A DNA stretch of 64,000 nt from Ascidiella aspersa (lineage: Eukaryota), in NCBI GenBank assembly GCA_963924565.1, contig OZ004612.1:23250001-23314000 (forward strand), given 5' to 3'. This document shows positions 3,001 to 58,525 of the stretch, one piece after another (within the stretch, counting starts at the first letter, position 1; every line of letters begins with the position of its first letter). A program made the translations under genes and the position numbers. The notes under the pieces are model-generated. The model had not been told where the DNA came from, searched no databases, and saw only the letters and a program-made list of their open reading frames with translations.

Positions 3001-6000
3001 CTTAGTTTGTTTCAAAAAACGTTTATTTCACACTATACCCACGTTTTAAAGTACTATCTCAAGTTTAAGGCGGATAATAAGATCAACTTACAAGATATTC
3101 AAATTAGAAAGTCCGGCGAATCCCAGCTCACCCACCGAAGATATATGGTTTTCGCGAAGAATTCTAAAAAAGTTAAAAGGATTTACATTAATCTGATTGC
3201 ATTAAGTTTCAATGTGAATAACAAGGTTAAATAGTATGATAAAATCGACACCATCTTAACGAAGACGTTTCGTTACGTATACTTATTATTATTTTAAAAC
3301 AGTTAGATTTATACTGTGATGCATCCTCTTTGTGATAAGAATTGCCTTCCAAATCTTGCGAGTGAAATTTAATGCATCGCAGCGAATTTTTACCGACCAT
3401 GATACACTCAAGATGATGTCGATCTACTTGACGTATTTGGTCTTATTTTTCAATATTAAGCTTCTTGCCGTGCAATACGTACCCTTGTATACAGCTATTT
3501 AAACAAAGTTAACAATCTTACAATATGTCAATATACTTTTATGTTAGTGCTGATAAAACAGTAACAAATCTCCTGGTTGTTATCAATGTAAAATAAATAT
3601 ATTTACAATATATATCTAATGAGTTAGGAATAAATATAATGAAGCTAAATGCGTTGTTTGATAACTGATGTTGTTTACAAAAAAGTAATGAAATAGTAAG
3701 CAAATAGACAAAAACTTTTCTGTTTTTTATTGGATTGAAAAAAAAAGGAAACCTGTAATTATGTTCTTACAAAACACATGACACGTTTCCATTGTGATTA
3801 AACAATAATTAAAAGGTATGTCGAACTTATACGCATAACTTACAAAACACGGAGATTTCGTAATCTCTGGAATGCTCCATCCGGAATATCTTCAATGCTG
3901 TTTACGGCCAAATCACTGCAAAGAAAATAACAATATTTTTTGACACGAAATTTATACATAATAAAAAGCGGTCTTGATTAAATCCTTATATGTTAATGGT
4001 TTTCTAAAATTACATAGAAAAAAAGATGTTTCTATGTGTTCCTGTAAAAGCATATATGTGGCCTAATTTTTCAGATTTGAATATCATACTACTGTTGTCG
4101 AAAAACTTTGATTAGTTGCATTTTTTCCAATCGAGGTAGAAATTTTGTTAATCCAATCGTGATTCGAAATTTGGAAATACAAACGATAAATATTACAGTT
4201 AACAACTTTTCGTTATTTTCCAAAGGGTCTAAACTCTAAAAGGGTGCACCTAGTGATCTTGTAAAACTTTGACAAACACAAAAAGTACACTTTTGTAGTT
4301 TGTAGCGTGAACTAATGCGCCAGTTGCTTATCTACAAACGCAACACACCCGTTACTCGAACGAGTTATATACAATTAAGAGACTTGAATACCCATAGTAC
4401 TCACATTGTCTCCAAGTTACTTGTGTCCATAAGAGCTTTGGTTGGCACCTGCCTTATCCGATTGTCGTCCAACTTGAGGCTGATGAGGTTCTTTAATCCG
4501 TAAAAGGTACCGTACTCCAGATTGTTCATGTAATTTGCTCCCAGGTTTCTGCCAAAAACAAACAATGGAGGAAGAGATTAGTACCGCAATAAAGATCTAG
4601 GTAGTGTTACTCCGATGAACAAAGACAGATATCAGGTTCACGTCGTTTTTTGTAGATGCTTGTCACAGGGCGGCCATAGTCACCTCAAAATGAGGCTCCA
4701 GTGTTGCAAACAAGTCACTTGAGTCCCAGTCAAGTCATTTGAAAAATAACTCAATTCTAAGTCAATTTGTTTGCAAAACTAACAAGTCAAGTCCCAGTTC
4801 AAGTCATCGGTTGCCCAAGTCAAGTACCGGTCAAGCCATAGTGAGAGCAAGTCATTTTCAAGTCATGTCATTGGCATATAAGTAAACAGTTAAACTATTA
4901 CAATTGGTAAACTCGTCCAAAACAAGCAAAAAATGACAAACGTAATATACAGCAATAAAAGTGTTCAATGTGCAAAACTTGAGATAAACTTTAATAAAAA
5001 AAATTAATTTAATCTCAAGTTATGACAAAATGACTTAAAGTCCAAGTCTAGTCATTTGTCCAAAATACTTAAGTCAAGTCAAGTAATTTGAAAACAGTGA
5101 CCTAAGTGCACGTAGTCGTAAGTCAAGTCAATGACTTAAGTCATTACAACAATGTAAGGCTCTGTGCAGTTACCAATCATCGAATTTAAATACAGTTTTT
5201 GGAAAAAACAAATCTTTTTTGGTCAGAATGAGGACCCAGATTATTTATTCGCGTGTACTGAAACGAAACCTCTATCAATAAAATGTGATCGGCCGCAAAT
5301 GACCCTCGCGCGTGCTGAATACGTTGTTATTAGATATTCCAGTTCAGTGGCAGGTGCTTTGGGAATCGCCTTACTCGCCGTGATTCAATTTGGCCGCATT
5401 GTGTCCTTGCGATAAATCGCTGCAAATTCGATAAGGCACGAGTTTGTTTACACCGATATGCCCGCGACCCGCCTATAGGAAGGACTGGGGTTTGTTTCCA
5501 TTTAAGGTAAAATTGGATTAGAGTCGTGCAACTACAAAGGGGAAAGAGTCATTATTTATGTGTTTGATATTGAAAACAAAAACAATAGTTTGTAACTGCT
5601 ATGTTGAAAACGATTAAAAACTATAGTTTGTAACTGCTATGTTGAAAACGATTAAAGAGTGATTCGAAACGTTCAAAATGCCACCTACTTGTGTATGGGC
5701 TTTGATATTCTTACTACTACAACCACCAACCATTATGCTCCAAAGTTTGCAATTTATTTTCGCTTTTTAATATTGATCGTTACATCAAAGCGAACTTTTT
5801 CCTGGATTGAACATTGCTGTTTTGATAGGTTTCGGTATAGTTGGTAAATAAAAACAGTTCAGGAATACGGTCGAAAGGCTAAATATGAGAAAACATTTTG
5901 TTTCAGTGTTGTGTTTAAAGTACAGAATGTGAATTGTAAAGCTAAAATTATAAAGGTGATTTGATTAATTAGTTAATTTTTTTTCGTTAGAAATTTTTTT

Positions 6001-9000
6001 CTTAGTCTGCTGCCTTGAATTTTTGTCTTGCCTAGCAAATTGATAATTTGGCCGAATCAAACCACTATGTTGCGATTCTACATTCAAAAGTAAAACTTTC
6101 AATATTATTAGGTTGTCAACTATAGATGGAACAGTAAACTTCTTAATGTTAATGCAAATTTTGTGCTTATAACCTTGACACATTACCTTTGAACGTTTAA
6201 ATTAATCTATTATACTTTGAGCGTGGTAGTCATGTAACTTGTTATCGGATCGGATCGCGATAGTTTTTGTCCAAAACATCGGGAATCGGTATCGGAATAA
6301 AATGTCAAGTACCTCCTACTTATATGAGGTGTTGGAATGCATGACAAGCTAAAAAGGTTAGACATAAAATCGTGTATTGTTCAAGTAAAAAGTAATTAAT
6401 TTCCAAGAAATGTTTCAATCGTTGTTTCTAAAATTGAACCCGCGTGATTATACGCGACAGATGCGCGCGTATTCTTCACTTAACGTTATAGTGACTCTAC
6501 CAGTGTTGTAACCAATCATTTCGAAATGACTTAAGTCCCAGACGAGTCATTTGAAGAATAACTTAAGCCCAAGTCAATTCTTTTGCGCAAATAACAAGTT
6601 AAGTCCAAGTCATCGGTTGTCCAAGTCAAATCCCAGTCAAGTTATTAGGAGAGCAAGACAATTTTAATATACTGTTAAACTATTAAAATTGGTAAACTCG
6701 TCCTAAGCAACAGTTTAACTAAAAAAACACAAACGCAATATACAGCAATTAAAAAAGTGTTTAATGTGCAAAAGATAAATTTTAATGAAAAACACTTAAA
6801 TTAATCCCAAGTTATTTGACAAAATGACTCAAGTCCAAGTCAAGTCATTTGTCCAGAAGACTTAAGTCCAGTCATTTTAGTCAAAAGACTTAAGTCAAGT
6901 CAAGTCATTTGAAAACAGTGACTCAAGTGCAATTAAGTCAAGTCAATGACTTATTACAACACTGGTGACTGCGATGCTACCATACTTACAGCGATCGTAG
7001 GTTGGTGGCTTCTACGAAGAGCTGCGGTTCAATGTTTTCGAGGCGGTTGGTGTGAAGCGTTCTGTGGAGCAGAAGTATAAGATTTGCAAAGAATCGTGGG
7101 GCGTTAAAAGCTTTTGAATCACAGGGGGTGAGCCAGTAGAAATGCGAACCCTGACCCTGGAGGTCGAATGCTTGACCGCATGGGATAAGCCATCTCTCCG
7201 GCAGAAAGATTTTGTGATGTTGGCGTGAATATGGTTCTCTGCTTTGTTTACAAGTAGTTTTGTATTTCGGAAAGATTTAAAATAAGGAATGAACTGCGTT
7301 AGGTTTATACTGCTATACTGTATACATTAACCAACGCACATTTTATTCATAAGAGTTGATAAACGGCCTAGAAAAAAATAACCTCAACGAAAAATAATTA
7401 TTATTTAATCACAATCACAGACCGTGGTCAAATAAAGGAAATCCAGCAGCTTTAAAACAATTTTTCTAAGCCAGGTTCTCGGCTAACCAAATACTACAAA
7501 AGCAATAAAGTTTTGTTGACCCATTTATCTAAACGGATTTTAATAAAGCGAGCAAAACATAAGAATTCAGCAAAAAATACGGCAAGTTACTTTTCCAAAC
7601 ACCAAATCACACTTCAACGTAATTTTATCATAATTATTTTTCGCGTATCGTTTATACCAAGTTTTTAACCGAATCGAACAAGTAGAGAACACTTTTGCGA
7701 TTTAAACAAGAACACTTTTGCCTTACGATATACCTTAGCGTATTTAAATTTGTGATCCCTCTTTATCCTTGTACTCCCTCAATAAGTCCGAATTAATAGG
7801 AAAGAAAAAGCTTTAACCCTTCTGAACCGCGAGCAGGTTCAAAGATGCTTAGAGCCTTTGCGGTGGTTTTACGGCCTAAACCGGTTTACGGTTCAACGTT
7901 TTATGACCGTGAAACGAGCTCGCGGTCGCATAAACTTTATTGATGACATCATAAAAAACGCGCTGGTCAAAAAGGGCGCGAAGCCACACGTGGCGCCAAC
8001 ACAGACGAAGCTTGACGGGCAGGGCACCAGTCGAAGTGTTTGTGCTTTTTGCAATTAAAACGTTTAAACAATTTCTTGTGTGTTTTTCTTTTGTGAACAT
8101 GTTGCAAAGTTTAGGGAATACGTCACAGCCTGAATTTCATTCAAACTTTTTTATATCCCTACAACAAGCCATTCCAGTAACTGCATTGTTTCGTACTGTA
8201 AATGAGAATGATTTGCTAAACTGTTTACTGATTTGTGCTCGCTTTATGATTTATCGATGTTAATACGCCAAAACTTTGCTTTCATTAATAATATTCGAGA
8301 ACATGGTAAAACAAATACCATATTGCGCTAGGAAATAAGAATCTCGCAGCATTTCGAGTGAAATGTACCAGTCTTTCAACATATATCTGTCGCTTCTTAT
8401 TGGGTGGTGCCATCTATCTTTTATCTCTCGACTCTCGTGAGTATTTTTCTTCGGCCGTGTAACTTAAATTATCGCGCGATAAAAAAAGGTTTCTGCGAAA
8501 AAAAGTCGAAGCGTTTGAGCACCGGCAGCTCGACGGCGTTCGGTCGATCAATATTGCTGGCAAAGAAAACAGCGGCTTTGTTTCGGAAAGTCGCCGAAAC
8601 AACAACGCGCCTGCGTCATTTCATTTCCACAAAAACAGACGACCCCGTAGCTTTGGGGGTGTTGAGACGTGCACGCCCCTCTTCCCCCTACACAGGCGCT
8701 ATGGCATGCTCTTGTTGTTTCAGCACGCGGCTAAATCGGGATAAGACGAAGTAATATGCACCAGCAGGGAACGGCTGAGCCCAGCATCTATTCTTCTCCA
8801 TTTTCTGGCTGTTTTTTCGGAAGGTAAGAAGGGTTGGAACCGCTCGAAAGTGAGCAACGTGTTTATATAGCAGAAAACTTGTTTGTTTTTTCCATGAAAA
8901 CAAACCGGGTGGCCATTCGCCTTTATAGAATTTAAAATTGCCTTGCTTTATTCCTGAAGAATTGCGTAAATGGGTAATTATCCTCGATTACATCATTACA

Positions 9001-12000
9001 CCATTGCAAGATAACAAGAAGGTTTAGCTCGGGAAAGTTTAGTCAAAAATAAAAATAGCCTCTTTCGATATGGCCTTGATATAAAGCGGCGCGCCCTATA
9101 GAAAATAATCAAGGTTCACGAACGGCCAACACAGAACGGCAAGCCACTTTCCAAGCGCAAAACGAACGCGATTTGGTCAGGCGGCATATGTTTATGGCAA
9201 ATACTGGGGGAAAGCGACAGAAAGCACACATGGGCGGCTGTTACGCACATCCGTCAACGCCATTCGCGTCATATTCGTAACCGAGGCCAAAGACTGAGAT
9301 AAGAGAGAAATATAGAAGGGCGGATTGTAATGATCTAAAGCGGAAAGTGACTTTGCTTCCGCGCGGTTTCGCACAAGTGAAGATATAAGACCGCGTCAAT
9401 CAGGTGAACATATCGCAAGAGGGAAGTGAAAAAACATTTATCGCACACATCATCATTGAAAACTAAGTTTTTATCAGTGTACAGAAATTTATTAATACAC
9501 AAAGGCTTATCAAGTGGATTCATATCTTAATTCGAGTGGGCACAATTTTTTTTTTTGAAACAGAAATAGCATCAGTGTAAATTAAACATCATCACTAAAA
9601 ACTTTGAAGTAACGCACAATATTAGCTCCTACCGCGACAATTAAGATGGTAACACCACTACATTGTCAAGGCATCATGTGCTCTTTACCGTATGACCGCA
9701 AGTAATAGAATGCTTACACAATTAAATATGTCATAAAGGACTCATCAAAATGCGCTTTGGCAAACTCACTGTTAATCTTAATATTTGTCACCGGCAAGAT
9801 TGCCCGCAACAAAACGAATGGGCGCAAGGCAATTTCCGCATTCCCGGAAAAACGGCGTCCTGAGTATAAGCGCCCCCTTCGCAAATGTGTGTGGTCCCCG
9901 GCACGATATTGGGGTCGAATTCGACGGGGTTCTTTGAAAACCGACACCTGGGGCCGACGGGCGGGGTGCCCTTTTACCCACGACTCGCGCGCATAAGTCG
10001 CTCCCCCGATTGTTGCTTTTGCGTGAACCTGGCGAAGCCGCATAGTGGCACATTAACACTTTCGCCCGAAAACTTGGCGCTCGCTTCAACCGCAAAACTA
10101 TATTGCTTACGAAAGGGGCACTTGCGCCTAAAAGCCCGCGCCACGAACTGGTGAGGGCGTAAGTTGCGACCCGAGAGTTACCAACATTCCTTTCCGTTTA
10201 ATTTGTTGTGAGCACTCTGCCATTTTCACTCATTTGGAAATCGAAATTCGCGGTTCCGTATTTCGATAATAAGCCGCTCCAAACCAAACCGCGAGCAAAA
10301 CGAACGTTTGTAAGATTTACAATTAAAATAAAATGTGGTCCAAAATGGTTGGAGGTTGCAGTAAGGCGTAGTAAGAATATCAAAGCCCATACAGAAGTAG
10401 GTATCATTTTGAACGTTTGGATTAACGCTTTAATCATTTTCAACACCATGTAAAATCTGTTTAACCGAAAGCCCTCGAAGCAGAAGATCGCAATCTGAAA
10501 ACAAGCAATCGATTAGGCAAATTTCGTCGGCGGCCAAGACAACTGGAAACGCGTTATGGCTACACAGCACGAAATCAAAACAAGCAGGCCGAACATCAAA
10601 GTGGGACGCCATGCTTGCTTGTCCGACTGGCCACCGCTTGTTGAACGAAAAATAGCCGCTAGCCCCGTGTTTAGGGGTCGCTGCGAAACGCGATATCACC
10701 CCACACCGGCCAGCAGCGCCCTTCGCGCTTATAAGAGCCCAGGCAAGTCGCGCAAGAGGCGCTGTCACAAAGCCGCTAACCCAATTAGGCAGCCGATAAG
10801 ATAGCGGCAGGTGAGTTATACAGCAGGGCTGTTGTATGCGGAAGCGTCGGCCCGGGAATGTAGCGCTTATCTGGCCGCAAAGACAGCGACAAGACGCCGC
10901 CGCCGCCGCTGCTCGATCAATGTAGAAGGTCCCTGACAGGTTCGATCATTCACTCTTGACGTCGGCGACGGAGGTTTGTGTTCCGAGGGCTTCGCGGAAC
11001 GCGACTCGTTACCCTCCGCTGGGCACAACGCGTGCCGAGAAGCGACCCCAGAAAAATCGGGTGAAAATTAATTTATATAAACCAGTGGTTGCATTGGTTT
11101 TGTTATATTGGATATTACCGTGACCCTTGAATATCGAACTCAATTCCTGATCAGTAACAGCAGAATAATAGTCTAGCAAATCTAGTAATTCAGGTCTGAC
11201 ACTTTATATACATGTGGACAGTTTTTTTATGTATATTTCACCAATGAAGGAGTTATCGGTATTTCTGTCTTGAATAACTAGCTTTGCCAGTCAATTCTGC
11301 TGACAAACCGGTGGTTTGTAACCGTTTTCCAATCCCCTTTTTGTAATTGCCCCGTGCCTTGCGCCCAACCAGATACAATAAACAATTGGGGCATAACAAA
11401 CAACTAGATTTCAAGCGTGATAAAACTTTATAAATTGACAGACAATAGTCTTTTTTAACATTTAGCCTATTCTGCCTAACAGTAGCCTTAATGTGATTAA
11501 AAATATGTTAATCCAAAGTAAGACAAATTGGTTGTAAACAATAGGAAATCAAGTTTAAAGTACCACAATCAAAATAAAACAGCAACCCCAGAGCCCGGAA
11601 ATTCATAAATCACAAAACCATTTATAGTAAAGCACGTGCCCCATTGAGAATTGATTGACGACCTTTAGAACCACTGGTAACTGTCGATGTTGGAGGTGAT
11701 ATCAACGTAATAGAACTCTTCGGTAAATAACGATTTGTGTCTGGACCCGATGCAACAAAAATGTGTGTTTTTCTGCGTTGTCTGGTCGCTCTTTGAGTTG
11801 CAGGATACAAGCGAATACCGCGTTTTTACAAAGACCCCCGATATGAAACTACAAACAGAATGACGTTCCTTCAAGTTTTAATGCGATTATACTCTGCTAT
11901 TAAATCGTAAAGCACTTAGTTTTTGACGCCTGCCAAATATGACGCTACACAGGTATGACGTACGATGCTACACACACCCGTTTAATTTACACAAATTATA

Positions 12001-15000
12001 ACCCCTTAAGGGCTTAAAATTTGGCGTGTTGTTGTCGTATACATGTCCTAATGTCATGAACGTTTCAGTGAAACGGATCCAGAACGAGCGTGAACAAAAC
12101 AAACGCACGAAAGAGTCGCCAACTTTGAGCCTCGCGCCAACATCAGTCCGAATTAAAAACTCACGAAAGATCAAAACTCCCCTCTAAACAGCGGCCTGCG
12201 GATCGGCGCGGAAACCAAAGGGCCGACCGTTGGAGGTATACGGTCACCAAAGTGCCGGCTCATATCGTGACAACTGTCCCCCGGCGACTTTGCCGAGCGT
12301 CGCTTTCTCCCGTGGCTCCGGGGAGCGCGACTTTATTAACCCCCGCCTTTAATGTTCCTGGACCGCGAGCACTTGGCGAGCCCGCGCGTTATTGCGCCCA
12401 TATAGTTAACCAACGTGTTTGGTTGCCCTTTACTGGCCAAGCGTTCTTCGGCGTCAGTTTTCCCAAGCTTCAGGTAACCTGACGGCGAAGAGCGGTCAGA
12501 AGGTTGGTCAAGGGGTGACCAAATGCCGAAAACGCTCTTGGAAAACGCGATACTTTCACTGCCCACCCTATAGCGATGTGATTCTCAAACTGTATGCCGC
12601 GGCACATCATTGTATGTACCTCGAGAGATTCACAAGTGGAAATGGTTGTAATTTACAAAACTAACCTATTGAAATTTCAAACAGGCGTTAAGGCAAGCAT
12701 GCAATAGTTGAATAAGCAACATTCATTAGATAACTAATAATGTAGCGTTATTAACCGTTTACCATGTCTTGTCGTAATCATGAAATTTGAAGGATCAATT
12801 TTTTTAAGCAACTTTCGTTAAAATTGTGTCCTGAATTTCCTTTAAATATGCCACTAGCGTAATAAGTTTGAACACCACTTCCCTGCTGTAATCATAAAGT
12901 TAAAATACCCCCCTCCCCCGGAAAAAAGCGGAAAAAGAACAGTTAGGCAACTTTAAACAGGCCTGAAACTCGCGATCGCCGATTTCGACTTTTGCGCATT
13001 TTTATGACAAATGACAAAAGAGGATAACTTACAGCGACTGAAGCTCGACCAGGCCTTGGAACGAGGTCGGGTGGAGAGTCGTCATGAAGTTGTTCGCCAG
13101 GTCCCTGGAGATGCAACAAAAGAGCTTCAACGTAACGTAATGGACACGACTGCCATGATGGCATAGATTGGTGAATGGGTATAACTCGTTTTCGTAAAAC
13201 GGAACGAGTTTCGAGCAAGATTAGATTTAAGGTAGGCCTGTACTACTCAAAATAGTAAGAGGGGCGCGACTTAAGGTCCATGTAACCATCATAACGCGCA
13301 TACAATTCAGTATAACCTATGAGATATGGCCTTAAAAAAAAAACATTTTTAAGGCATCAAAATATTATATCACACGGTGGGCAAAATTCAGCAGTTAAAC
13401 TAAAAGTTATGCATGCCATAATATAAAGGAGTGTCTGTTGTATGACATTCTTAACGAGTTACCTACATGGCCATAACGGCCAAATCGCAGTTTTTAAGTA
13501 AGCAAGGCAGACAGTCAGTAAGAATGCCAAAATAGTCAATATCGATATACTGTAAAATGGTTGCGTTTCGAAACAATATTAATCCACATTATCCACATTG
13601 TCATGGTTTTACCAAAAAACTCATTAGGCATAGAGTCGTAGTAATTGTTAACTAAATAGATATTTTAGTAGTCTTATTAAAGGGTTCATTGGATCAATGT
13701 TTAGTGACACTAAAATCATAGGTTTTTTGATGTTTTTTAGGTATACTAAATGCTACTCGCGTATGACGAGTTTTGCGGAAGACACTTCAAAAAAAGGCAT
13801 GTTGCCTGTATCAATCGCGCTCTGGAGGCAGTTATATAAGCTTGTTTATAATTTTATGCCGTCGCTTCATAAGCAGACAATCCCTTTATTGTCAACCCAG
13901 TTCCTCGTAAATTTCGCACATATAGTTTAGTGATAGGCGCCAGTCTGTGGCTATGCATACTTGCCTAGAAATGTCAATAACTGGCCGACGTTCCGCAAAA
14001 GCACGGCGGTACCTTGCGGTTTCTTATGCGGGCGTGGAAGCGTATTCGATCGGAAATAGCGAACTGATTGTAATCCGACGTGTACAGGATGGCGTGGCCA
14101 AACCGCGACGGGATTTGTACAAGCTTAGTAAGCAGGGAAAACACGATTTGCTTGCGTTTAATTGAAAAGCGGATTTTCAGGCCCGTGCATTTGTCAGAAG
14201 TGACCAAGTCGTCACGACTTATCCGGGATGACACTTCGATCGTGATTTAAAGTCGAAACTGAAAAATCTGTGACGGGCGAAAAAGCTGATCGGAGTTTAC
14301 CAAGTTAGGAAATGGTACCGTGCAAAATGCAATTGACGCCACTCTGTGTGTAACAGAATACGTGTTAAATGCCATATGAAGCTTGTGTTGCCATTATCGT
14401 GACTGCTGGAAATTTTATTTTTGAAAAAAGGGTCAATCGTGATGGTCAAATAAGTATTTTCTTACAAAATCACAAAAGAAACTACTCTATAATATAGTGA
14501 TTTAATCCCATGTAACTCCTTGTTTTTTTATCCTTAAACAGTCTGCAATTGCGGACATCTGTTTATCACGATCAAGGTGCACAACTTTTCAGCTATTGAC
14601 AAACGCATAAACCGATTTGAAGGCGATACCTGATGTAATAGTAGCCGTATTCTCCCGATACTAGGTTGGTATCGGCCGCGATCCAATAACAAAATAATAA
14701 AACTATTTGGGCCATAAATATATTCAAAATCACCGGTTTCTCCCTTTAAAGGCAATTTAAAAATATATATATATATTAGGTTAACAAATATCGGTAACTA
14801 AACTTTGCCAACGCTAAAGCGATTTTTGCCTCAACCTGGATCCTAAAAAACGTGCTGTTTTTGAACGAACTGCTTTGCAATTATTAAGTCGGATAGGTGT
14901 TTCTCACGTTCACGATGAAAGCATTAAATTTACCAACGTTAAGAATTAAGTTTACCAACTCCAAATGTCAAGCGCTGTATCAAACCACTGTGTCCATCTT

Positions 15001-18000
15001 TCAATGCAGAACTATAACGACATGTGTTTTTAGCAGTCTGAACGTTCGGTTTTACAAGTCTTCAGCAACCTAAGCAAAGTTTTCCAAACAAACCACTTTT
15101 ACTGCTAGTCGCTTATTGGCTAGCAAACAAAATATCATAAAAAAAATCTTAAATGCTTTATGTCACGCAGGCATTTGTTATCAGAAACGAAATAGCATTA
15201 CTGAAATACTTAAACAGGATGCGGCAGGCATCAAGTACACAACTTTGTGCAAGGCAAACGACATGTTTGTATTACTATAAATTGCCATTAATCAACAAAG
15301 CAAAAATATAATGTGAAATTTAATTATCGTCGATGCTGCGACGGCAAATAAATTTGCCACATTGACAAGAGTTAAAATTGACGAACCTCAGTAAATTTAA
15401 AGAATGTGTAAATCAACAAATGCGATTTGGTGTTTATTTTAAAGTTAGAAGGTAACTACAATTTTGTTCAACTTAAATAACACATAGGATTTATTATTTT
15501 ATATTTTCGTGTAACGCCTATATACGTGAGAAAGACCAACAAGTATGATGTGATCCTGCTTAGATTTCTCAAATAAGCAATTAGTTGATTGCGTTTGAAC
15601 CACGTTGGGTATTTACTTTAGGAATTAAGATTTAAGCAAGATTCAGAAGTGTAAAGGTGAGGTTCTGTCATCTGTAAACGCGTCTCGATGTACCAAATGT
15701 TGTTTTATCTGCGTGACCTATACTAGATTATGAAACTATAGCTTCTGTTCGCTATTGTATTAAAAAGATCCGCGATGGAACCAGAGAATCGCACATTAAC
15801 TTAGATTTCACGCCGGGCGCTATAATAGATTAAATGGCTGCCCTGAAGATATGCCCTGAAGAAGACAACCTGGATAGGTTATCGAAACGTCGGCACAGAA
15901 TAAATAATTGTCGAAAGAACCCTCTTTATAATTGAAATAATGCCTGGCAGCAACAGTATATTCATTAAATGGCTATCACTAAATTTATTTGGGGAGTAGG
16001 TTCCCTACGAAAATGTGAAAATCTTTGACAATAGGTCATTACGAAATCTTTGATCCCACGACGAAAATGTTAGAAAATCGATTTACGAAGGAATTAAATA
16101 TGCTGTTTCTAACGGATACAATAAATAAGAAACCGGATAAGTTACGAAGAAATTGTCGCTGACGCGCAGGTTTCAAGACTTCTCTAGGCCAAAAGGCTCG
16201 GGATCCAAAAATAGATTAATGTGGCAAACGCAACTTGGCGGCACGCATATATGGATTCGCGGCATCATTATATAGTGGCAGCAAATGCCGAGTTAGAACA
16301 GCGCGGCCTTGAAATGTAAATGGCCGAAGGAAGTAATCCGATATCTATCCCGAAGTGTATGGGAATGAGGTGGCCTGCTGGCACGCCGGTCACCGTCAAC
16401 CATTCCTCCCAGGCGAATACAGTGATTAAGCGTTGAACGAAACGAAAGAACGCGCAGCTACAACTGGATACCGACTGCGAGCCTGCTGGATAAATAACAC
16501 GGCGCGTTTTGAAATGAAAATGAAGTCTGACCGGTTAGTTGTCTTTGCTGTTTGGCAGGCAACGCTGGGATACCGACTTCCGCCGCGAAATGTGCACCTT
16601 GGGACGTGTTCCTATTTACAATTGCTCGCCATTGCGGCGTCCGATTTCTATTCCGGCTAACCTTGTTTCCTCAATGAGTTAACATAAAAACTTATAAAAA
16701 TTCGACTGAGTTAATTCCCAAATGATGGACACTCAGGTCTCTCTTGCCACATATTCCCACGTTTACGGGCTAAGTGACCAGCGATGGATAACGCAGGCCT
16801 AGCAAGGCTGCCGCCAGTCTTGTGTATACGATCGTCGGCTGCAGTAAAGTGCGGCATATGGTTAATGCCGTGAAATCGTATTAGCTTTTCCACCTTTTGC
16901 ATAAGGGGACCCGCGACGCTTCTCCGATTCTTACAGGCGCATACCGCTAAATGAATGACGAGATAGATCGATAGCCGAAACGCAATTAAGCTCGAATCAT
17001 GCCGCCTACGTTCTATAGTTGCAAAATCACGACAAACACCAAGCACTGCTATTCTATTTTCAGACGAGCTTGCAACATAACATCTCTCCCCACGTTCACA
17101 TTGCAGCTTTCAAGTGGCGAGTAAACCGGCGATTCAAAATGTAGTTACAGTGTTAAAAACCTCCCTAAAATGCTGCCAACTCTCCTGTTTTACTTTAATC
17201 AGATTCACCTTAAGCCATTATAGGTATACGCGACTACATTGGAATATAAGTGACTGTTTTGTGGCATCGTACAAAAGTTATTAATGACACGCAAAATGGT
17301 GTGCGTGTTTATACAATTTACAAACTAATCCATTAAAAAAGAATACGAAAAATGTTTATAATTACTGACCGGAAAATAAACACTAGCAGCGTTACACTTA
17401 ATAACAATCCATCAGTCAGAAATATACGTTTTAACTATTGCATAACGAAATATTCGCTGCATGAGTTATTTGTCACTAATTTGGATTTTCGCTCTAGAGC
17501 AGTGGTTTCTCAAACTGGGATAAAGCGATTCGTTAGAGGTTAACATAGCCGAGCTGATAGCAAAGAAGAAATTGCACCCGTCGCATTGACACCTTTAAAA
17601 ACAACGTGTTATTTTGTGTTTATTTGTGTATATTTTTAAGGAGACCGCATCAGCTATTTAAAAAATTGCTAAGGGACCGTTGTGTAATTTTTTTAGAAAA
17701 GGTTTGACAACCACTGCTCTAGAGGCTTAGTTTTACGATACGTCATTGTCAATTTTTAAGTTGCAAAACATTCATCCTATACCTTTCTGATTTGCAAAAA
17801 GTTTGACATCGTTGGACTAGCAAGTCCGCTTGAGGAACTTTGTGAGCTTGATGTTTATACTTTTCGGACCCTATATTGGATATTGCCTTTTACATCTTTA
17901 TTTAGTTATTTTTCAGCCATGATGCATGTTAGGGTGAAGGAAACATAAGGGTTTCACATTGATTTTCGTTATAGTGTCCCAATCCTAATTTAGTTGTGAA

Positions 18001-21000
18001 ACAACTTTTAAACTTACAAATCTTCAAGGAAATGTAGATGATTGAAGGCCTTGGGAGGAATTACGCTGATGTTGTTGATGCTCAGGTCTCTGAAATTAAA
18101 AAGTACGGTTAGTTTCTTGCTGGCGGCCATACGCGTAATACAGGTGTAACAAAATGTCAAAGACGTGTTCTTCCGCCTGTAGCATTTAGAGATATCTTTA
18201 TCTTCCCATCGCAACACATACTTGGCGTCACTATCACACCTCATGTGTTATTGTTAGACGTAGGAAGGTCTACCAACACTCCTATCATCGCGACCGTTGT
18301 GGAAACAAGATGAAATCTTTGTGAAAAACGACCCAATTAAAGTGTGGTGGGCAACCCGTGAAGTCTGCAATTGTTTGTGTGCGACATGGCTGTAACAGCC
18401 TGGAAGTTTCAGTGTTTGGTGAATCAACACAACACCTGTCTGATCAAAGCTCGTGTAGCATCAACAACAAACATGTTTAACCTTTCGCATTAGTGACTTT
18501 TTGTGATGACACAGCTAGTATTTTGCAACTGTCGTACGCGATTTATGCCTATAGCACAAACTATATTAGAAATGGTATTATCTTAAGTTATATTATAATC
18601 CACGCTGTCAATATTAAGATATCTAAAAAAGCATAAAAATGCAAAGCGCTATCACTGAAATTCAAGCAAAATTTATATAATAATATGTAAAACCTTGACA
18701 CTACGACGAATTTAAGTTTTTAGGAATGTATATGGTGTAAATAATAATACGCGAAAGGTCCGCTTTTCGAACATAATTATAGACAAACTAAGTTGGTTAC
18801 CTATGAAAAGTATGATACAAAGATAAATTGTGCGTGACGTTAAAAAATCTGTTTTAGATTGGAGTTCGAAAACACAAAGGTTCAACAATGTTGAAAAAAA
18901 CAAGTTTGATTTGGCGTCAACCAGTGAACTGAGAATGATTCTATACACTGTTCCAGACAAAAGCGAAGATATTTACTGAAACGTAGCTACCACGGTGTGA
19001 ATGCTTCCATTTAGGAGCGACAGGTACCAGATGTGTTTCGCGACTTCGTCACGCCGCTGACACCATCGCGTCACAACGGCTCATTCCTCCAAGTCACCCC
19101 TGTCGCGAAGCGATAAACAAAAACGACGCGTCGGGGGGTAAAAGGCGACGGAAAAGCGCCCGGGGGCCGCGGCGATCGTCGACCGGTAATCGTGTAAATG
19201 ATTGCAAGGCAAGACCAAACAAGAGGCGATTTGTTTGGATACGTGAGCTAGCGGCGTTTCGCACGCGACAAAATGCGATAGTCGACCGGCCAAGCGTGCT
19301 TTCCGGCCCACGAGATGATTCCGTCGACCACCTTACATGACAAACGCGTACGACGTATTACGAGGAAGCTTGTGGAGGAAGCACAAAGCGATTTTTGTAC
19401 ACGATTGCGACAGAAACATTTTGCGACCTTAGAATGTTCAAGAACGTGTGGGTTGGCACAGCGATCTTTTTCAGAGCCAAAGTTGTAAAAAAGTTTGTGT
19501 TCAAGTGTATATAATTTTGTGTGTGCGTGTGGCGGGAAGTGGGGATTTAGGTTTGAATGTGTGCGTATGTGTTTAAGAAGTACAAAATGTATTTCCAAAC
19601 ATATGTTAACTGTCGCTTTTTACAAGATCATAAAAAGCGAAACTTCATAATGTTAAAACGATAACAATCAAAACCACCGATACATTGTTGGCTACATAAA
19701 AGGGAACAAAAAAGCGAACTCCCTCGATTACAGGTCTGTTTGATATTGCGGAAACATACGCTGCGGTTTATTAAAAAAAAAACAATTCAAGAGAGAAGAA
19801 ACAAACAACCCCCCCTCGCACACTTGCGGGCGCCCACAGTCATCCAACCCTAAACGAATGAGCGATTCGCTCCCCGCACCTAAATGTACGAAAAAACGAA
19901 CATTTTTCAACACCACACCAGAGTGTATAGGGTTGTCAACACCCCGAAAGAAAGTGCAGCATCGAATGTCGCACAAACACGAGACCCGGGTATGGCCATC
20001 AGTCATCTCCCGCCAAACATGCCGGGATTTAAAGGATTAGCAGCACCCAGACCGTGTCGCCCCACCGGCGATATTGCGACCCCTACGCGGCACAAAGGCC
20101 AAGTTTGGGGCGGGATTTCGCAATCTGCAAACCAACATTAGCTGTGTAGGATACCCTGTGGGTCGCGCTCCCAGCGACATGGTCTAAACACAGCGGAAAT
20201 CCCTTAGGGTATGAAGTTCACGGGTAGACCGGCGATGAACGCCATTTTCAACACCCTGGGCTTGTATTCGATATCAAACGCCTCTTAGATTATTTTTTTT
20301 GCCCGCTCGCTGCACGTAGCAGTAATCCAGATAGGGATTTCATGAAGGCCCCAGTTATGCGGCAGACGTTGAAAGATCAAGAGCAACCTAACTTCATCCA
20401 GTGTCGTCTAATATATTGAGAAAATGTCGGTCGGCGAACGCGATCGCTATGCTGGATAAACATCAATGCTGAAACTATAAGGTTGTTCAACAGAATCGTG
20501 ATAACCCCTATTGCTTTCGCATACGTGATAAATTAACTTTGGAGCATAATGGTTGAAGGTTGTAGTAAGACGTCAACGTCGCTAAAATTGAATAAAGAAT
20601 AATTCGAAACGTTTAAAATGATACCTATTTCTGTATGCTTTGATATTCCTATTGCGTGATAAAATAACCTTGGCTGGTTTACTAAACACCCTCTTAAAGC
20701 TCATAGTAACATAGAAGTGATCTTTCTACGAAAAAATGACCGATGTATAAGAAAAAGCTCGATCCATGACGTAATTGATAATACGCAAACGATTTTTACC
20801 GAATGCTTATACAAACAAAAGTGAACGAGGGTTGTGAGCGGGGGCGGGGTTAAAAGGTGCGAATAGAGTGGCCGCATAGCTGGGGAAGCAGTCGGGCCCT
20901 CGCTTATATATGTATACATACAACAACGAGTCATGCGCCAAGTCAGGCGGCCCAGATGTTCCGGGTACCATTTGCGAGGTGAATGCATTTCGGTCGCTCG

Positions 21001-40061: not shown

Positions 40062-40369
40062 ATAATTATATGTCTATTTCGCCGTACAAATTACTGCATC
40101 TCTTTGCTAAAAATTTGCTAGTTTTACGAGTGCCTGATCGGGAATTTAATGGAACACTGTTATCAAAGCAAATGTGTCAGGGCCATAAGAACTGGCAATC
40201 ACCCGGATTATAATTATGGTTATTAGGCAAATCGCGCATTCCTCACAATGAAAATAGCACCCGCTACGACCATGACCCTGTATAGTTGTTTGTATACCCA
40301 TTTAAAAAGATACGCCTTATTTCGATCCGTTTTGACTGTGATATACTTTATCAGTTTCAGCAGTTAAAC

Positions 40370-41913
40370 ATGTATAATGTTAAAGTGACAACTGTGTTAT
40401 GCATTGTATGTTCGATCTACTGTGCAACTAGTCGAGGCGACGACGAACTTTTGCTATGCAAACCTGCCTCATCTGTGTGGAAACCAAATTGCTCCAATTC
40501 AACGGTTGTAGCAAGACCGGGAAAGCAAGGGCCCAAAGGAGAAAAGGGCGCAGAAGGTTTAAAGGGGCCCATTGGGCCTTCGGGATCAGTAAATACAAGT
40601 GAAATCGAACAACAGAATCAAAAGATTCAGAGCATGACAGGTAAAACGTAAAGTGTGTTTGTTATTCAAATATAGTACTGAATAGGTAAAGCACTTTATC
40701 TGTGTTCAGAGCAAACTGGATACAAAGCAAGAGTTAACATGAAAAATGTATACAGCGTTTAGTTTTCCACTTAAATTCTTGGAAAGAGGTCGTGAGTTCG
40801 AACCTCACGGCCGATTAGTTATTATTGCTTGCCTTGCTTGCATGATTAAACGAACCATTCGGTAAGTCTGCTAATTGAATGGATTTGGTATTTAAGATTC
40901 TCTTCAATATGAAGTTGTTTTGTTGTTTATTACAAAAGCATGTAGCAAGCATTGGTGCCACGGTTCCATCTTGACTCTTGGCCCTTTGAACGTGTGTATA
41001 GTTCAGTTGGTAAAGCGACGTTCCTTGTATGACCGAAGGTCGTTCGAAACTCACCGCAGTCTAAACTTTTATAGCCTGCCTTGCATGCATCTATGATCGA
41101 CTAGTTGGTTTGTCTGTCGAAGGATTGAGGTGTACTACATTTGACATAGTCCCAATTTTCAGCTATAAGAGTGTCTGTTCCTTTTAGTGAAAATAAATTT
41201 TTAAGAAATAAAACAGCATGTTTACATAATGAAACAAACCTTAGCAGTGAAAATACCTTTAACGCCAATGTTTCTTTGTTAAGCTAAGCTCATGCGTTTT
41301 TTCCCTCATATGCAGTTGCTACGCTTTGTTGAAAGGTATGATTTTTGTCTTTCAGATCTTGTTATGGGAATGATATCTCGGCAATATCACGTCGATACCA
41401 CAACAAGGTCATGGGCGGCGGCAAGAGCTTACTGCAAGTCGATCGGAGCCGATTTGGTGACACACGGATTAAGAAACCCAGTTATTCGCAAGTCAGTTGA
41501 ATGTGTTTGGTACTTTAGGCCGTCGCACGTAATTGTCGCCTAAAATATCAGTTTCAACAATATATTATTACAATGTTTTTAAGGACTGTGAAGAAAAGAG
41601 TTTAGCTTCCTGATCATCACCATTGTTTGTGTTGAAACACAGGTATATCTTAGACAACTTGATCGACCCTTTGGGACCTTCGCAAAACTACTGGGTTGGA
41701 CTGACGGACTCCGCCCAAGAAGGGACTTGGGTGTGGATCGACGGGGTCGCGGTGACCCCCGAAAACAGCTTCTTTAATACAGGGGAACCCAATGAACTCG
41801 GAGGCAGTGATTGCGCCCAGCTTTACGGCTGGAACCACAAGTTGGACGACTACATTTGTACAGAACTTCGCCGCGTCATTTGCGAATGGAAGTGCCCTTG
41901 TGGGGGTGTTTAA
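40370..41913 (+). CDS. Secreted mini-collectin A (signal peptide, 8 Gly-X-Y triplets, neck, EPN C-type lectin domain), 225 aa
   Basis: join(40370..40640,41356..41491,41643..41913); GT-AG introns of phase 1 and 2; GKQGPKGEKGAEGLKGPIGPSGSV; WAAARAYC, YWVGLTD, WVWIDG, GEPN, DC, ICEW; TAA. A small additional neck exon cannot be excluded. Confidence 0.9.
40780..41145 (+). mobile_element. Two tandem tRNA-derived SINE copies in collectin A intron 1
   Basis: B box GAGTTCGAACC at 40795; second copy has an A-box-like TAGTTCAGTTGG and GTTCGAAAC; tails are shared (gc(c/t)tgccttgc.tgcat). Confidence 0.7.
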
Positions 41914-43581: not shown

Positions 43582-45437
43582 CTAAGATCTATACTTAGAT
43601 TTGTTGAAATTCATCAGGCTGAAAGTCTGTTTACAAATGTATGTTGAGTCAAACAAAACCAACATTCTCTGCGCCATTTTTCGAATTTTTGGGAACCTGG
43701 CATCACTTAACGAAGAGTAGAAGTCATTCAGTTTCAGGGCTATGAACTTGTCTTTTAAAAGGTAGTCATTCTGAAGATCGATCAGTTCCAGTTGTAACTC
43801 TGGTCGTGCAGTCGTAGTAACTTGAGACAGGGGAGATAAGACGATTTTAAATGGTATTTTGAGTTTTTCAAAATCAAGAAATCTACGGCAGAATTCTTGG
43901 TGCAGATTATCCAGTAATTTGCTGTATTTATTCGCATGTTTAGGGGCTTCTTTCATCGTCGCTAGAGTAGGGAAATGCACAAAAGAATTGTTGAAAATCT
44001 GTTCTGAGAATAAAGTTAATTTAGATTTGAAAGCCTCAACATTTGTGTACATTTGGTGTGCGAAGAGATATTTTCCTTGCAGTCTTGTGTTCAACTCATT
44101 CATATGTGTTAATATGTCCACAGCAAAAGCAAAATCACATAGGGAAATGCACAAAAGAATTGTTGAAAATCTGTTCTGAGAATAAAGTTAATTTAGATTT
44201 GAAAGCCTCAACATTTGTGTACATTTAGTGGGCGAAGAGATATTTTCCTTGCAGTCTTGTGTTCAACTCATTCATATGTGTTAATATGTCCACAGCAAAA
44301 GCAAAATCACAAAGCCAATTTATGTCTTCTAGCTCAGGGAAGTCATCAGTTTTTCCGATTAAATTAAAAAATGAGCTAATGGCATCCTTCAGTTCCCAGA
44401 CACGTTTACATGCTTTCCCTAGACTTAACCAGCGAACATGAGAATGGTAAAGCAAGTCTTGATGGTCAGAATCTATTTCTTTAAGAAACTTTATAAATTG
44501 TCGATGGTGAAGTCCCTTTTATGTAATTGATCAGTGGCACCACTGCCTTCACTACATGATTAAGCTGCAATACATAGTGCCTCTTGGTGGATGATGCACT
44601 GTAAAAAAGTTATATCCATCCCAGGGCTTTCCTCTTCCATCCTATCTTTAAGTCTTTTCAGCAGTCCAATAATTTTTACCGTCAGATTTGGTGATCCATC
44701 TGTGGTGACATTTGTAAGTTTGCTTCAAGGTAGCTTCAGTCTGTCAATCACACCAGACACTTTGATAAAAAGGTCCTCTCCTCGTGTTTTCCCCTTTAGC
44801 GATTCCATGGCTAAGAGTTCTTCTATTATCTCAAAATTGGTATTAATCCCTCTGACAAAAAACAAAAGCTGGGCGGTGTCCTTAACGTCATTACTTTCGT
44901 CCAATGCCAAGGAATAAAATATAAATGAATCTGCTTTTCCTTTTAACTCTCTGGCTAAGTGCTCGTCAATTTGTTCTACACGGTTCTTCGTGATAAACTG
45001 ATTTGTTCGTATTTGCTTTTTGCATCTGGACACAAGATATCTGCTGTCTCTACCATGCACTGCTTAATAAACTCTCCATCAGAGAACGGCTTGCTTGCTT
45101 TTGCTATTCTAAAAGCCAGTAAAAAGCTTGCCTTGGTGATTGACTGATGAATGGCTCTTTGCTGGAAAAGAGTATTTTGTTAAATCCGAAAACTTGTTGT
45201 TAATCTTTGCGCAGTAGTTTCTCGTTGTTGAGTTGACTGGCCACTAAGATAGTTTGCGTGGTTGGTGTCAAATTGGCGCCGGATGTTGTATTCTTTTAAA
45301 ACAGCAACTTTATTTTGGCATATAAGACATACCGCGGTTGATCCGACTTCTGTAAAAAAATATTTTGCTGTCCATTCCTTTTTGAATGTTCTGCGCTCAC
45401 TATCCACTTTTCGCTTCTTTAATACACTCAGTGACAA
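43582..45437 (-). pseudogene. Disrupted hAT transposase
   Basis: Split over at least 4 ORFs by stops and frameshifts; the catalytic E of STYxCEQxFS reads K; the zinc-finger His reads Q (RRQF); 172-bp internal duplication. Confidence 0.92.
43968..44311. repeat. 172-bp near-perfect tandem duplication
   Basis: 43968-44139 versus 44140-44311; 2 mismatches seen. Confidence 0.95.
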
Positions 45438-48320: not shown

Positions 48321-48835
48321 ATGCAATTCTGCAAGTTGTTAGTTTCAGTTTTCTTATTTGGGCAAGTTTCTGGTACAACTTGGCATCGGTTAGAGGTTAG
48401 ACAACTTTGAGTATTACCTAAGTCCCAACTTTGCAACGAACTACACTGGAGTATTAACTGCCTGCACCGTAATAGGTGCAACTCTGGCCAAAGTCGATTC
48501 GGGGAAAATTCAACAATTTCTACAATATTTATTAGGTTTGCTGACTTTTTATCTAGTTTAGGCGCATATAATATCTAAATTAAACATAGCGCTGCTGTTT
48601 GCAGTGCCATATCATTGCTTCTTTATCGGCTTGAAGTTTGACAGATCTAGCAATGTCTTCCAATGGCTGGACGGTTCCCATGTGACCGTGTCCCAGTGGT
48701 TTCGAGGGCAACCGAATGATCATTTTGGTACCGACGATTGTGTGAGTATGGGCTGGAAACACTCCTACAGTTTGCTGTGGTTCGACATTAGCTGTGAAAT
48801 TGACTCAGCGGGATACATATGCCAGAAACTTAAAG
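48321..48835 (+). pseudogene. C-type lectin domain gene, frameshifted (pseudogene or null allele)
   Basis: Exons 48321..48535 and 48605..48835. Signal peptide MQFCKLLVSVFLFGQVSG. A 7-bp duplication at 48388-48401 gives TGA at 48408. Removing it restores TWHRLDNFEYYLS...ACTVIGATLAKVDS, splicing in phase to FFIGL..FQWLDGS..QWFRGQPND..DDCV..WFDISC..GYICQ, then gtaag. Downstream exons not identified. Confidence 0.85.
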
Positions 48836-51182
48836 GTAAGAGCGAAGTTAAGGCGCCATCTTGTAAAAGAAAAACAACATTATTCTAAACAACGAGCACT
48901 ATTATAAACCAGTACAGGACATATGTGCCACTCAAAACAAATTTACACTGCTATCCATAACTTCCTTTCTGCTAACGCGGTTGAAATTCATACTGCGTGG
49001 TTGTTATACAGCAACACGGAATCCCTAGGAAATTTCGCACAAATAAGTTTATGTAAAATTGCATGTGTAACATATTGTTTATTTTTTCGCACTGTGGTTA
49101 AAACAAGATTGATGACTTTTGCAACGATTTATTGCAGGAAATATGGCAAAACAAACGTTTCTTCACATTGTCGAAATACCGATATTAACAACACTTTCTC
49201 TTCTAACGTTCAACAGAATTTGCCGTCCTACATCCGCATGTAATTACAAATATCCAGCTGGTTTAGTGAACTGAAACCATTTTGTGTAATGTAGCCTTTA
49301 TCAAGTATTACGTACTACATCGCAATGCACGTGATGTGAGTCCACTGACGTGTGACCAAGGCGCGGGCGAGTGGGATTGGTGCTTCGCGAATTCTTTTTA
49401 TACCTAATGCTATTCGATACTATAGCGGCTTGAATCGTTATCGCGTGTACTGAGATTTGTGAATATAGTCAACCAGCAATGTCAACTGAGTGAAGTGACT
49501 CTGTCTAGGATAAGAAGTTAAGGACAGGTATTTTAGCGGCCTGCTCCTTGAAGTCATGTGTATAACAAGAAACGAGTATAATATTTAAGCAGCCGTCGGC
49601 CCTCGCCTTAAAGGAAGCGCCTTTTACTTACCCGTAGCAACATTCCCATACCTACCGCTAAACGTTAAAGTAAAAAAACATGTGTTTTAGAAGATTCAAT
49701 CGTTAAACCAAGAAATTAAAACTTCAACATGATCAAAAAATCTTTTTTTATTATTGTAGTTTGATTATATGCACCTCAAAAGATATTCAAATGTATTGCT
49801 GAACTCTTAAAAAATAGCTCTTTGTGTAGAAGTCATGCAGCCAATCACGCGAGACTTAAATGCACACTATATCTATTAAATAAGTGGTCTTCTATGAAAC
49901 ATGCCATATTTTATTTACGATTGATTTTACCATATATTCATTTACTAATATCAAACTATCAAGTGTCAAACACGCATTGCATCAGGATATTTTTTAAATT
50001 GTAATCACATATTAAGTGTAATATAATGTGAACATAACATTGTACATAGAAAAACATCCAGCCGTGATGGGCTTGTTGTTGAAAATATCTAAATGTTCGG
50101 AAAACATTGGTCCTATTTTAGATTTTGATACTGCCCACCTTGCCTCACGCGCGAAATGTCATTTCCTCAAAGTGTAACAGCGACTGCTAGCGGATTTTTG
50201 TAAAAAATACGATCTTTTAAATATCATTGTAATTCCCACACAACGGAGGTTGGCCTGGTAGCTGAAGTATGTCATGCATCGATACAACAGACTGTCGATA
50301 TCCCCAATTCTCAGTGTTTACAAAGCATGTACATAGAAAACATGTTGTAACACACTGACACACTTTAACAGTGGCGATCGTTTGTTACCCATGAAACATA
50401 AACATTTTTTTGATATGTGTTCAGATGTGCCACACAAATTTTAACCTTTGTTGCACTAACAATTAATATTTTGATTTCAGAAAGAATTCTTCTTCTTCTA
50501 TACAAATCGGTTACTATTCATTTACAAACAGGGGTACTTTTCCTTGTGTTATACTTGGGATTTAATTCGAAACTTATATTAGTGCTGCTGCACGTAAAAC
50601 GATTAGATTGCTGCATCAGGGGTCGGCAACCTTTTTTGCACTGCGGACCGGTTTAAACTAAAATTTTGTCGCGGACCGGCCTTGAAAAACAACAAATTCT
50701 CAGGAAAGTAAATTTTTTACAAACCACGGGCGGCATAGGCAAACAATTTAATTTAACCAAACCAGCGGCTCATTTAAATAAAACTTTTATGCCTTGTTTT
50801 TTCTTAAATTACACTTGTATAACATTATTGCCAATTCCCATATTCTTACCAGCTTGTCAAAATAAGGATATTTAAAGCATTCTTTCAAAAGAAGTCACAC
50901 TTTTGTATAACATATAATAATGTATGATCCTATTTTTGACCAGGCCCTACACGACACTTTCAATAGTTTGCCTACGTAATATAAAAACGAAAACAAAATA
51001 TCGGCAATATGAAAAAGTATACGAACCACAGACCGACACCTTAAAAGTATAGGATGGACATACGTACAAGGCTTGCCAGAATGGCTTTTTTGACAACAAA
51101 AATCTTTCTTTAACGTGGTTGATGCCAGAAAAATCATAAGGCTTTTTAGCCTAATTTTTTTGGTCATTTTTATAGTCGAAAA

Positions 51183-56939: not shown

Positions 56940-58525
56940 TTATAATATAACGACTATCAAGAGTAAGCCTCGTTCTTTTTGTTGAAAATGAGTCTAACTA
57001 TAATTTTATTTAAAATTTAGGAAAGCGTTCGGGCGAAAAAAGGCGTTAAGCGAAAAAATGCGTTTACGCATGGTCACCATGAAAGGTGCAATGGAAATAC
57101 ATTGAGTTAAAGATACCTGGACAAGATAAGAGCAAAGCGCGAAAAAATTACCTTTACGAATAGTTAAAATGGTAAAATACGAGGAATGGTCTTCTACCCA
57201 GTTTATATATTTATGTTTTGCTTTTTAATGTCAAACGCTCATATTTTTTGCGCTTTTTAATGTTTCTATAGATCCCTATATTTTATGCTAAATTAAAAAT
57301 AATCCTAGATCCGCGCCTGTATTACAAACATATACAGTGTGGTTTTATTTACAAAACTAAATAGCTAACAAAAATGGTACTGCAACTATTTTAGCAAACT
57401 CAAAAAGCAACAATCAAATATCACACTTAGACCCATGCTGTTCATCGTTTATTTTTATTATATAGGGCCAAATCAACAAGCGCAGCACAGAACAGAACAC
57501 ACAGGAAAGTATCAGCCGTTAATCAACTTTACAGTCGGGTATGCATTGTCACTTCCACTAACATTAACCTATTGCAACAAATCTAAGCGTCGCTCTGTGT
57601 ATGCACGATTGCATCAATTTACGCCGATTTGTCACAAAATACGTGTAGCCCACATAAGCATAACTAGGTAAATGATTTTGTTTACTGTGCTCTCTAACGG
57701 CACATGTTTCGAGGGCTAAAATATTGTATTGTCTGTTTTATTTTAGGAATAATGAGATTTTACTTCTCGATATAGTTTTTGGTCTACAGTACGATCAAAA
57801 TGCAGCAAATCACGAAAGTTCTTTCTACCTTGTGCACAGTCGATGTTTGATGTTTTATTTGTTTACTGTGACATCACATTGAACCACTTAGTAAAAATAC
57901 TAGTAACGGTACAATGGTCAAGTTCGCACGTAAGAGTTATACATTGTGTTAATTTTCGTGATTGGTATTCTAAAAATTAAATTGTTGCGTCATGTAAACG
58001 TCATTAGACGACTGCTTGCTTTTTAGTGTGGCTATTAGCAGTGATGGGATTCAGCCAGTGGCACCATCGCCGGAACCTGGGGTTGCATCCTTTTCTTGCA
58101 ACTATTTTAATTTTAAGAATAGGTTGCTAGATAGTTTGGTTTTAAAGAATGTGATAGTGAAAGAAAGCTTTTGTCAGCAAGTCCTGGAGTGATAGAAAAT
58201 AAGACTTTTTGTTTCAGAACTGGCTAAAAAGTATGACTTTTTGGCGCTGGTCTGGAATCCTACCTCGACGCACATTATTTGGGTTAGGGTGGGTCAAGTA
58301 TTATTAATAAAGAATGAATATAACAATACCTGAACCACCCGCACCCAAACACTAACTCGCCCCCTAACTCAAATTTTCTGCGTTTATTTTATAACTGTGG
58401 TAGGATTCTAGACCAGCGCCGAATTTTGTGATAAAACCAACTGACGAAAAAAATTGAATCCACCGGTTAAGAACCACTGGTGTAAGCCTTCGCTTTGAAC
58501 AGGTTAACTTTGCAATATAAGAAAA

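Follow-up and report, generated by a model that had tools for sequence, protein, structure and literature searches.

Minimal hammerhead ribozymes have been described in the pseudo-LTRs (pLTRs) of metazoan Penelope-like elements (PLEs) (Cervera and De la Pena 2014, PMC4209133). These are type I ribozymes with a helix I of 4-5 bp, an extra nucleotide before a helix II of 7-8 positions, a G10.1-C11.1 pair, and a palindrome replacing helix III. They number thousands per genome, mostly as single copies from truncated PLEs; some form pairs, 100-700 bp from each other, on opposite strands. No cleavage was detected for a single minimal hammerhead, and multimers cleaved weakly (PMC4209133). In EN+ PLEs of the Penelope/Poseidon type, such as Poseidon of Anolis (PMC11167929) and Pen2a of Adineta vaga (PMC3846280), a reverse transcriptase (RT) is followed by a C-terminal GIY-YIG endonuclease, the pLTR carries a hammerhead, and there can be a tail of ~30 nt that overlaps the start of the ORF, as well as an inverted, 5'-truncated arm; targets are AT-rich or ATT, target-site duplications (TSDs) are ~8-15 bp, and uncleaved RNA is the main template. 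The layout of tail, inverted arm and TSD has been described for PLEs elsewhere too (PMC3846280, PMC8557442). In Anolis, the tail is tied to two RT start sites, the endonuclease prefers ATT, and hammerhead cleavage required protein and was dispensable for insertion (PMC11167929). Non-LTR retrozymes are short non-coding units with a type I hammerhead, for which an origin from PLE pLTRs has been proposed (PMC7229834, 10.64898/2026.07.22.740005).

Here, we describe a hammerhead-bearing insert in a 64-kb stretch of ascidian DNA (the window, to which coordinates refer). A search of largely open-access literature turned up no report of PLE hammerheads from an ascidian, although tunicate motifs may appear in the supplementary tables of PMC4209133. 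We conclude with high confidence that the insert is what remains at the 3' end of a 5'-truncated Penelope-like RT/GIY-YIG retrotransposon, comprising the pseudo-LTR hammerhead and the tail; that it likely arose by target-primed reverse transcription; and that it is likely inert in the intron of an LGR5-like gene. Either in itself or through its family, it shares with Poseidon and Pen2a the domain order, the pLTR hammerhead, the tail at the ORF start, the inverted arm, the type of target, the TSD range and the uncleaved template. As a stub it is close to the median in size, its retroelement class is common, and its motif is of a kind already known.

A minimal hammerhead motif lies antisense in an LGR5-like intron

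We used tblastn with Phallusia, Ciona and Clavelina LGR proteins, together with inspection of splice sites, to delimit the host gene. Two 72-nt minus-strand LRR exons, at 18018-18089 and 13033-13104, bound a 4,913-bp intron with GT..AG ends (13105-18017), and further minus-strand LRR exons lie at ~31.2 kb, ~7.0 kb and onward. Immediately to the left of the window lies a 7TM exon that shares 68% identity with a Phallusia protein named LGR5 and 53-55% with Ciona and Clavelina proteins; this exon succeeded as a protein query, and a single 58-aa LRR exon gave no match. The insert is on the strand opposite to this intron, and hence antisense, as an initial annotation of the window had proposed. Read in the LGR sense (15843-15870, minus strand), it includes two pyrimidine-rich CAG sites resembling candidate 3' splice acceptors. 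Other high-copy repeats lie in the LGR introns at ~4700-7300, 10000-11300 and 17340-18000, where read depth is 20-250 times background.

The hammerhead, which we identified from sequence, fold and covariation across 24 related motifs, spans 15852-15895 on the plus strand. A 4-bp stem I (15852-55/15892-95) leads into the core CUGAAGA (15856-62) and an extra A at 15863. Stem II (15864-71/15876-83), with the loop GGAU, pairs at seven of its eight positions and has one C.A mismatch. GAAA (15884-87) and GUC (15889-91) complete the core, the palindrome ACGU (15887-90) stands in place of stem III, and the predicted cleavage site is after 15891. AATAAA, part of the pLTR, follows at 15899-15904. The core, stems I and II, the ACGU palindrome and the AATAAA had been recognised in the initial annotation, and each was found where it had been placed. 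The motif thus resembles those of PMC4209133 in its type I form, its 4-bp helix I, its eight-position helix II, its extra nucleotide, its G10.1-C11.1 pair and its palindrome; it differs in the private C.A mismatch in helix II, and it is known here from sequence.

A search for the core hammerhead pattern gave two overlapping matches at this position and none elsewhere in the 64-kb window, compared with a mean of 0.13 in shuffled sequence; the window therefore has no second hammerhead motif detectable by pattern search. An Rfam scan of 12000-20000 at E<=10 found no match. Given that the folding energy alone is also not significant (z -1.04), the case for a hammerhead is based on the motif and on comparison among copies. 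An ACGU/ACGU duplex contributes only -3.1 kcal/mol, and the cofolding algorithm of ViennaRNA is unable to represent a hammerhead dimer fold.

The insert has an exact TSD and a short junction duplication

The sequence ATTAAATGGCT flanks the insert as an exact 11-bp TSD, with the left copy at 15829-15839 and the right copy at 15964-15974, both as initially annotated. It occurs nowhere else in the window on either strand, and the chance of such an exact repeat is ~2e-5, allowing for 30 possible positions. The first three bases of the right copy, ATT, are also the element's own continuation, such that the boundary is ambiguous by 3 nt. At the 5' junction, TGCCCTGAAGA is present twice, starting at 15839 and 15852 (15839-15849 = 15852-15862), which bears out another feature of that annotation; bases 15840-15848 are a micro-duplication of the element's own first bases, which we infer to have originated by slippage or repair. 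Junction stutters of a similar type occur at two other loci (L006 and L157). Homology to a natural longer copy begins at 15848-15849, and so the annotated 124-bp insert, although correctly flanked, consists of an element proper of ~115 bp (15849-15963) preceded by the junction duplication. We ruled out the possibility that the duplication is a second half-ribozyme, since there is only a single GAAAC-GUC arm.

The insert belongs to a Penelope-like family

We scored 40 of 601 genomic candidates for the 124 bp and found at least 39 other near-full matches, all with the same tail end and with 91-97% identity. Exact matches to a 22-nt pattern from stem II number 112 in the genome and zero in the control, indicating at least 112 copies of the family motif. 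In four longer copies (L023, L043, L044 and L047), GIY-YIG and RT coding DNA lies directly upstream, and we recognised RT/GIY-YIG motifs in these and in L048, including YVDD in the RT and VVYCIPC..C..VYIGETGR in the GIY-YIG region; the order in the parent element is RT, then a C-terminal GIY-YIG endonuclease. Pfam matches to RVT_1 (E 1e-4) and GIY-YIG (E 0.007) are both below curated cut-offs. Protein relatives number 357 at E<=1e-20, and most of the 120 matches listed have the RT domain PF00078; the closest database proteins are only ~41% identical to the family protein, suggesting that the family may be unnamed. Because longer copies continue into coding DNA for the RT and GIY-YIG domains, the window insert is established, as judged from sequence, as a PLE family member. 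The initial annotation had taken it for a retroposed fragment of a Penelope-like or a retrozyme family. The first of these is supported, with the same pLTR and tail ending RT + GIY-YIG elements in the genome; of the two kinds of linkage that had been suggested as worth looking for, that to an RT/GIY-YIG ORF was found and tandem arrays were not seen in the fetched loci.

None of the 14 long loci has an intact full ORF or an intact pLTR-ORF-pLTR unit, all copies seen being broken or truncated; L048 has an inverted arm, the tail and an ORF, but neither of its ends has a complete direct pLTR. In L048 (415-3885, minus strand) and L054 (667-2975, plus strand), PLE copies have LINE-like RT and ORF1-like frames as neighbours. 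A CX2-5CxxC zinc finger is found in the RT-EN linker of Neptune and Nematis (PMC8557442), and inspection by eye of the sequence before the GIY-YIG motif in L047 and L044 revealed no such finger. The missing linker finger and the domain order, rather than a tree, point to membership of the Penelope/Poseidon clade.

The last ~28 nt of the insert (15936-15963) correspond to the PLE tail, as delimited by two classes of 3' end and by the reading frame of L048, in which the insert's last 23 nt are in frame with a 271-codon open frame upstream of the RT. This in-frame run makes ATG 15940 (MPGSNSIF) the likely start codon of the element. It would lie in the tail, ~48 nt downstream of the cleavage site, whereas the ORF of the Anolis element starts at stem II; the Anolis RT also starts 111-118 nt into the ORF, unlike the start proposed here (PMC11167929). 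L002, a sister minimal copy 97% identical to the window copy, is laid out in the same way but is flanked by a TSD of its own, of 14 bp. This identity, together with the perfect TSD, suggests that the window copy is young.

Family copies are usually made from uncleaved RNA

The 3' ends of 125 distinct segments with a hammerhead fall into two main classes: 57 are at the tail (0 to -5) and 60 lie 22-36 nt short of it, with the other eight elsewhere; in head-to-head pairs, the tail is on exactly one arm in 37/37. To avoid selection on the ribozyme, we also took all 55 matches to a tail pattern. Copies in this tail-selected set are inverted (head-to-head) in 37 cases and simple in 18; an adjacent TSD of >=8 nt is present in 42/55, with lengths of 10-17 nt in 37/55 and a mode of 13. 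Tailed ends are followed by A in 46/50 and by ATT in 16/50. The window arm, at 116 nt, compares with a median of 120 nt. The cleavage site is spanned in 41/55 copies and a start within 2 nt of it occurs in 1/55, which shows that the usual template in the family is uncleaved RNA, in line with the dispensability of cleavage in Anolis (PMC11167929). A footprint of cleavage in the genome, which we had sought, was rejected on the same count.

We considered whether 5' ends cluster at the edge of stem I. Such clustering was apparent in hammerhead-selected copies (13/57, scan-corrected p 0.04) but not in the tail-selected set (9/38, p 0.22), and we rejected it; palindromic ATAT microhomology could be a cause. 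Separately, 5' breakpoints may be depleted inside the hammerhead (7/38 versus 12.9 expected, p 0.03, post hoc); the hammerhead zone is also less AT-rich, such that microhomology is an equal explanation.

Two groups of loci bear on the history of inverted copies. Three head-to-head hairpin inserts of ~255 bp, all at 34.6-36.4 Mb of one contig (G000:C3; L020 ~1350-1615 on the minus strand, L111 ~1455-1715 and L112 ~1430-1690), have unrelated flanks and the same internal junction, with 91-93% identity, whereas the junctions of other pairs vary. It thus seems that the hairpin junction itself was copied on at least two occasions, which is relevant to the formation of head-to-head PLE ends. In addition, L009 and L010 (G000:C7:11.29-11.31 Mb) arose by segmental duplication and share their flanks and TSD, but their inserts measure 543 and 264 bp; the difference in length is an internal loss from the hairpin after insertion.

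Related motifs are abundant and their stems covary

A general minimal-hammerhead pattern matches the genome 2,163 times, compared with once in the control, or ~0.45 times per 64-kb window. As in PMC4209133, motifs of this type here run into the thousands, chiefly as lone copies of truncated PLEs alongside some opposite-strand pairs. The matches belong to several families, and a similar tail-like sequence follows related motifs in L134, L135, L136, L144, L145, L147 and L148. Within the family itself, 66/111 motifs are identical, and variation is too low for covariation. We analysed 24 motifs: the window copy, three other fetched copies, and 20 picked by hand from the first 100 of the 2,163 matches. 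Pairs are formed in 82.2% of 287 cells, compared with 76.8% in shuffles and 25-55% in slid controls. Double-sided stem changes number 25, compared with 10.6 in shuffles (0/500 shuffles), a figure that kinship among the 24 motifs can inflate; the core is invariant by construction. The G15864-C15883 pair is GC in 24/24 aligned rows, but the search pattern fixed GC in 20 of them. Related copies with covarying stems, which the initial annotation had called for, are thus present in the genome. The window copy's own C.A in stem II contrasts with U-A in 109/111 family copies, and an A-U pair common to the window copy and L002 contrasts with U.U in 108/111.

RNA and DNA reads at the locus

The RNA evidence comes from ~6% of one run, in which the reads mapped over 20 kb are dominated by other repeats. 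The bins flanking the insert have no RNA depth; LGR exons are also essentially uncovered, and so this absence weighs little against transcription of the insert. No RNA read in this sample could be assigned to the window copy, with 17/17 reads at 15866 carrying the family letter rather than that of the window copy. LGR splice joints and empty-allele joints were both absent among the joints listed (1,390 further joints were recorded). RNA from the family is present in both orientations at low depth, with 22 reads on one strand and 7 on the other at 15914, as judged by the first mate.

In one DNA run (X7), 7/531 reads lack the family T at 15866, the window copy's private position, corresponding to approximately single-copy depth, and a contig from X2 starts at 15941 and continues into the right flank. 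Both observations fit with the insert being present in other samples.

Discussion

We propose that the window copy was made by the route described for Anolis Poseidon. The element's endonuclease would have nicked AT-rich DNA at ATT, and the RT would have started inside the RNA at the tail, just past the start codon (by analogy with PMC11167929). Copying would then have continued through the intact GUC site of an uncleaved RNA template, the kind of template documented across the family, and synthesis would have stopped ~115 nt in, just beyond stem I. The join would have acquired a 9-11-nt stutter, and repair or fill-in of the staggered nicks would have generated the 11-bp duplication. The resulting lone antisense copy would not be expected to cleave anything, since it has neither a helix III nor a partner motif in cis.

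An alternative is that the insert is the monomer of a non-LTR retrozyme, a small, non-autonomous tandem repeat that forms circular RNA. Indeed, the insert is short and non-coding with a type I hammerhead, and a recent preprint traces animal retrozymes to PLE pLTRs and also reports solo monomers (10.64898/2026.07.22.740005). Nevertheless, we consider this extremely unlikely. Among all fetched loci there is only one same-strand motif pair, 1,300 bp apart; inverted copies, which make up 37/55 of the tail-selected set, are head-to-head rather than head-to-tail; 5' ends fall anywhere between -400 and +71 and define no constant unit length; a single copy of the 55 starts at the cleavage site; and the sequence is directly continuous with RT/EN coding DNA. 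The retrozyme half of the original interpretation is therefore unsupported. Deletion or recombination within a longer insertion, leaving a solo pLTR, is a different way to arrive at a short insert without abortive reverse transcription. Solo pLTRs derived by recombination are mentioned in PMC3846280, and internal loss after insertion has occurred within this family at L009 and L010, but both copies of the TSD are intact and abut the element, the insert comprises only the last ~115 nt rather than a whole pLTR, and its length is near the family median, with the sister copy L002 having the same layout between a different 14-bp TSD. We find this origin hardly credible for the window copy, and favour truncated, target-primed insertion.

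A very unlikely alternative to an inert stub is that the copy has been co-opted to cut or terminate an antisense transcript of the LGR5-like gene, either by trans pairing to family RNAs or aided by the PLE protein. Its catalytic core is intact and stem II keeps 7/8 pairs, family RNA is present in both orientations, and the Anolis PLE hammerhead is cleaved with the assistance of protein (PMC11167929). Against this, a motif of this sort is expected in ~0.45 of 64-kb windows by abundance alone; the copy is young and has a private C.A mismatch where 109/111 copies pair; the window offers it no cis partner; and the adjacent bins have no RNA depth, with all 17 reads at 15866 matching the family. Several related motifs, such as L137, L145 and L150, lack the AATAAA, which here lies 36 nt ahead of the start codon of the element itself; a role as a terminator is therefore doubtful. 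With no second hammerhead in the window, no flanking RNA depth (in ~6% of one run) and the AATAAA placed as it is, the suggestion that the insert could cut or terminate an antisense transcript has no support, and a regulatory role of the window copy is unsupported.

We give almost no credence to a more specific version, in which the stub would be a trans-activated ribozyme switch, with antisense RNA across the LGR5-like intron being cut at 15891 only in the presence of family RNAs, through the ACGU palindrome, or of PLE protein. If true, this would tie a Wnt-pathway receptor locus to transposon activity, and many other transcripts could be subject to such a switch, given the ~2,000 motifs of this kind genome-wide; a lone copy cutting host antisense RNA in trans would be a new transposon route to gene regulation. 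Nothing here supports cutting.

The single insertion is of little importance in itself. The family data, by contrast with the single copy, illustrate published PLE mechanics in an ascidian, with 3' ends ~28 nt apart, the tail confined to one arm in all 37 pairs, and an uncleaved template. A young, RT-encoding family with many junctions would also be a convenient system for studying the role of PLE hammerheads in vivo.

Other features of the window

Broken frames at 43585-45063 on the minus strand are transposase-like and, by their motifs, probably hAT/SPIN-like; a Pfam search of these frames gave no match. On the plus strand, the exons at 58508-63789 resemble what is presumably a CYP2-type cytochrome P450, and the first of these exons had no Pfam match. 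At 40286-41910, 48562-48885 and 53867-55669, also on the plus strand, are genes duplicated in tandem that contain short collagen-like and C-type lectin exons. These genes are probably collectin-like, judging from their exon content, and the segment at 41614-41910 has a Lectin_C Pfam match (E 2e-13).
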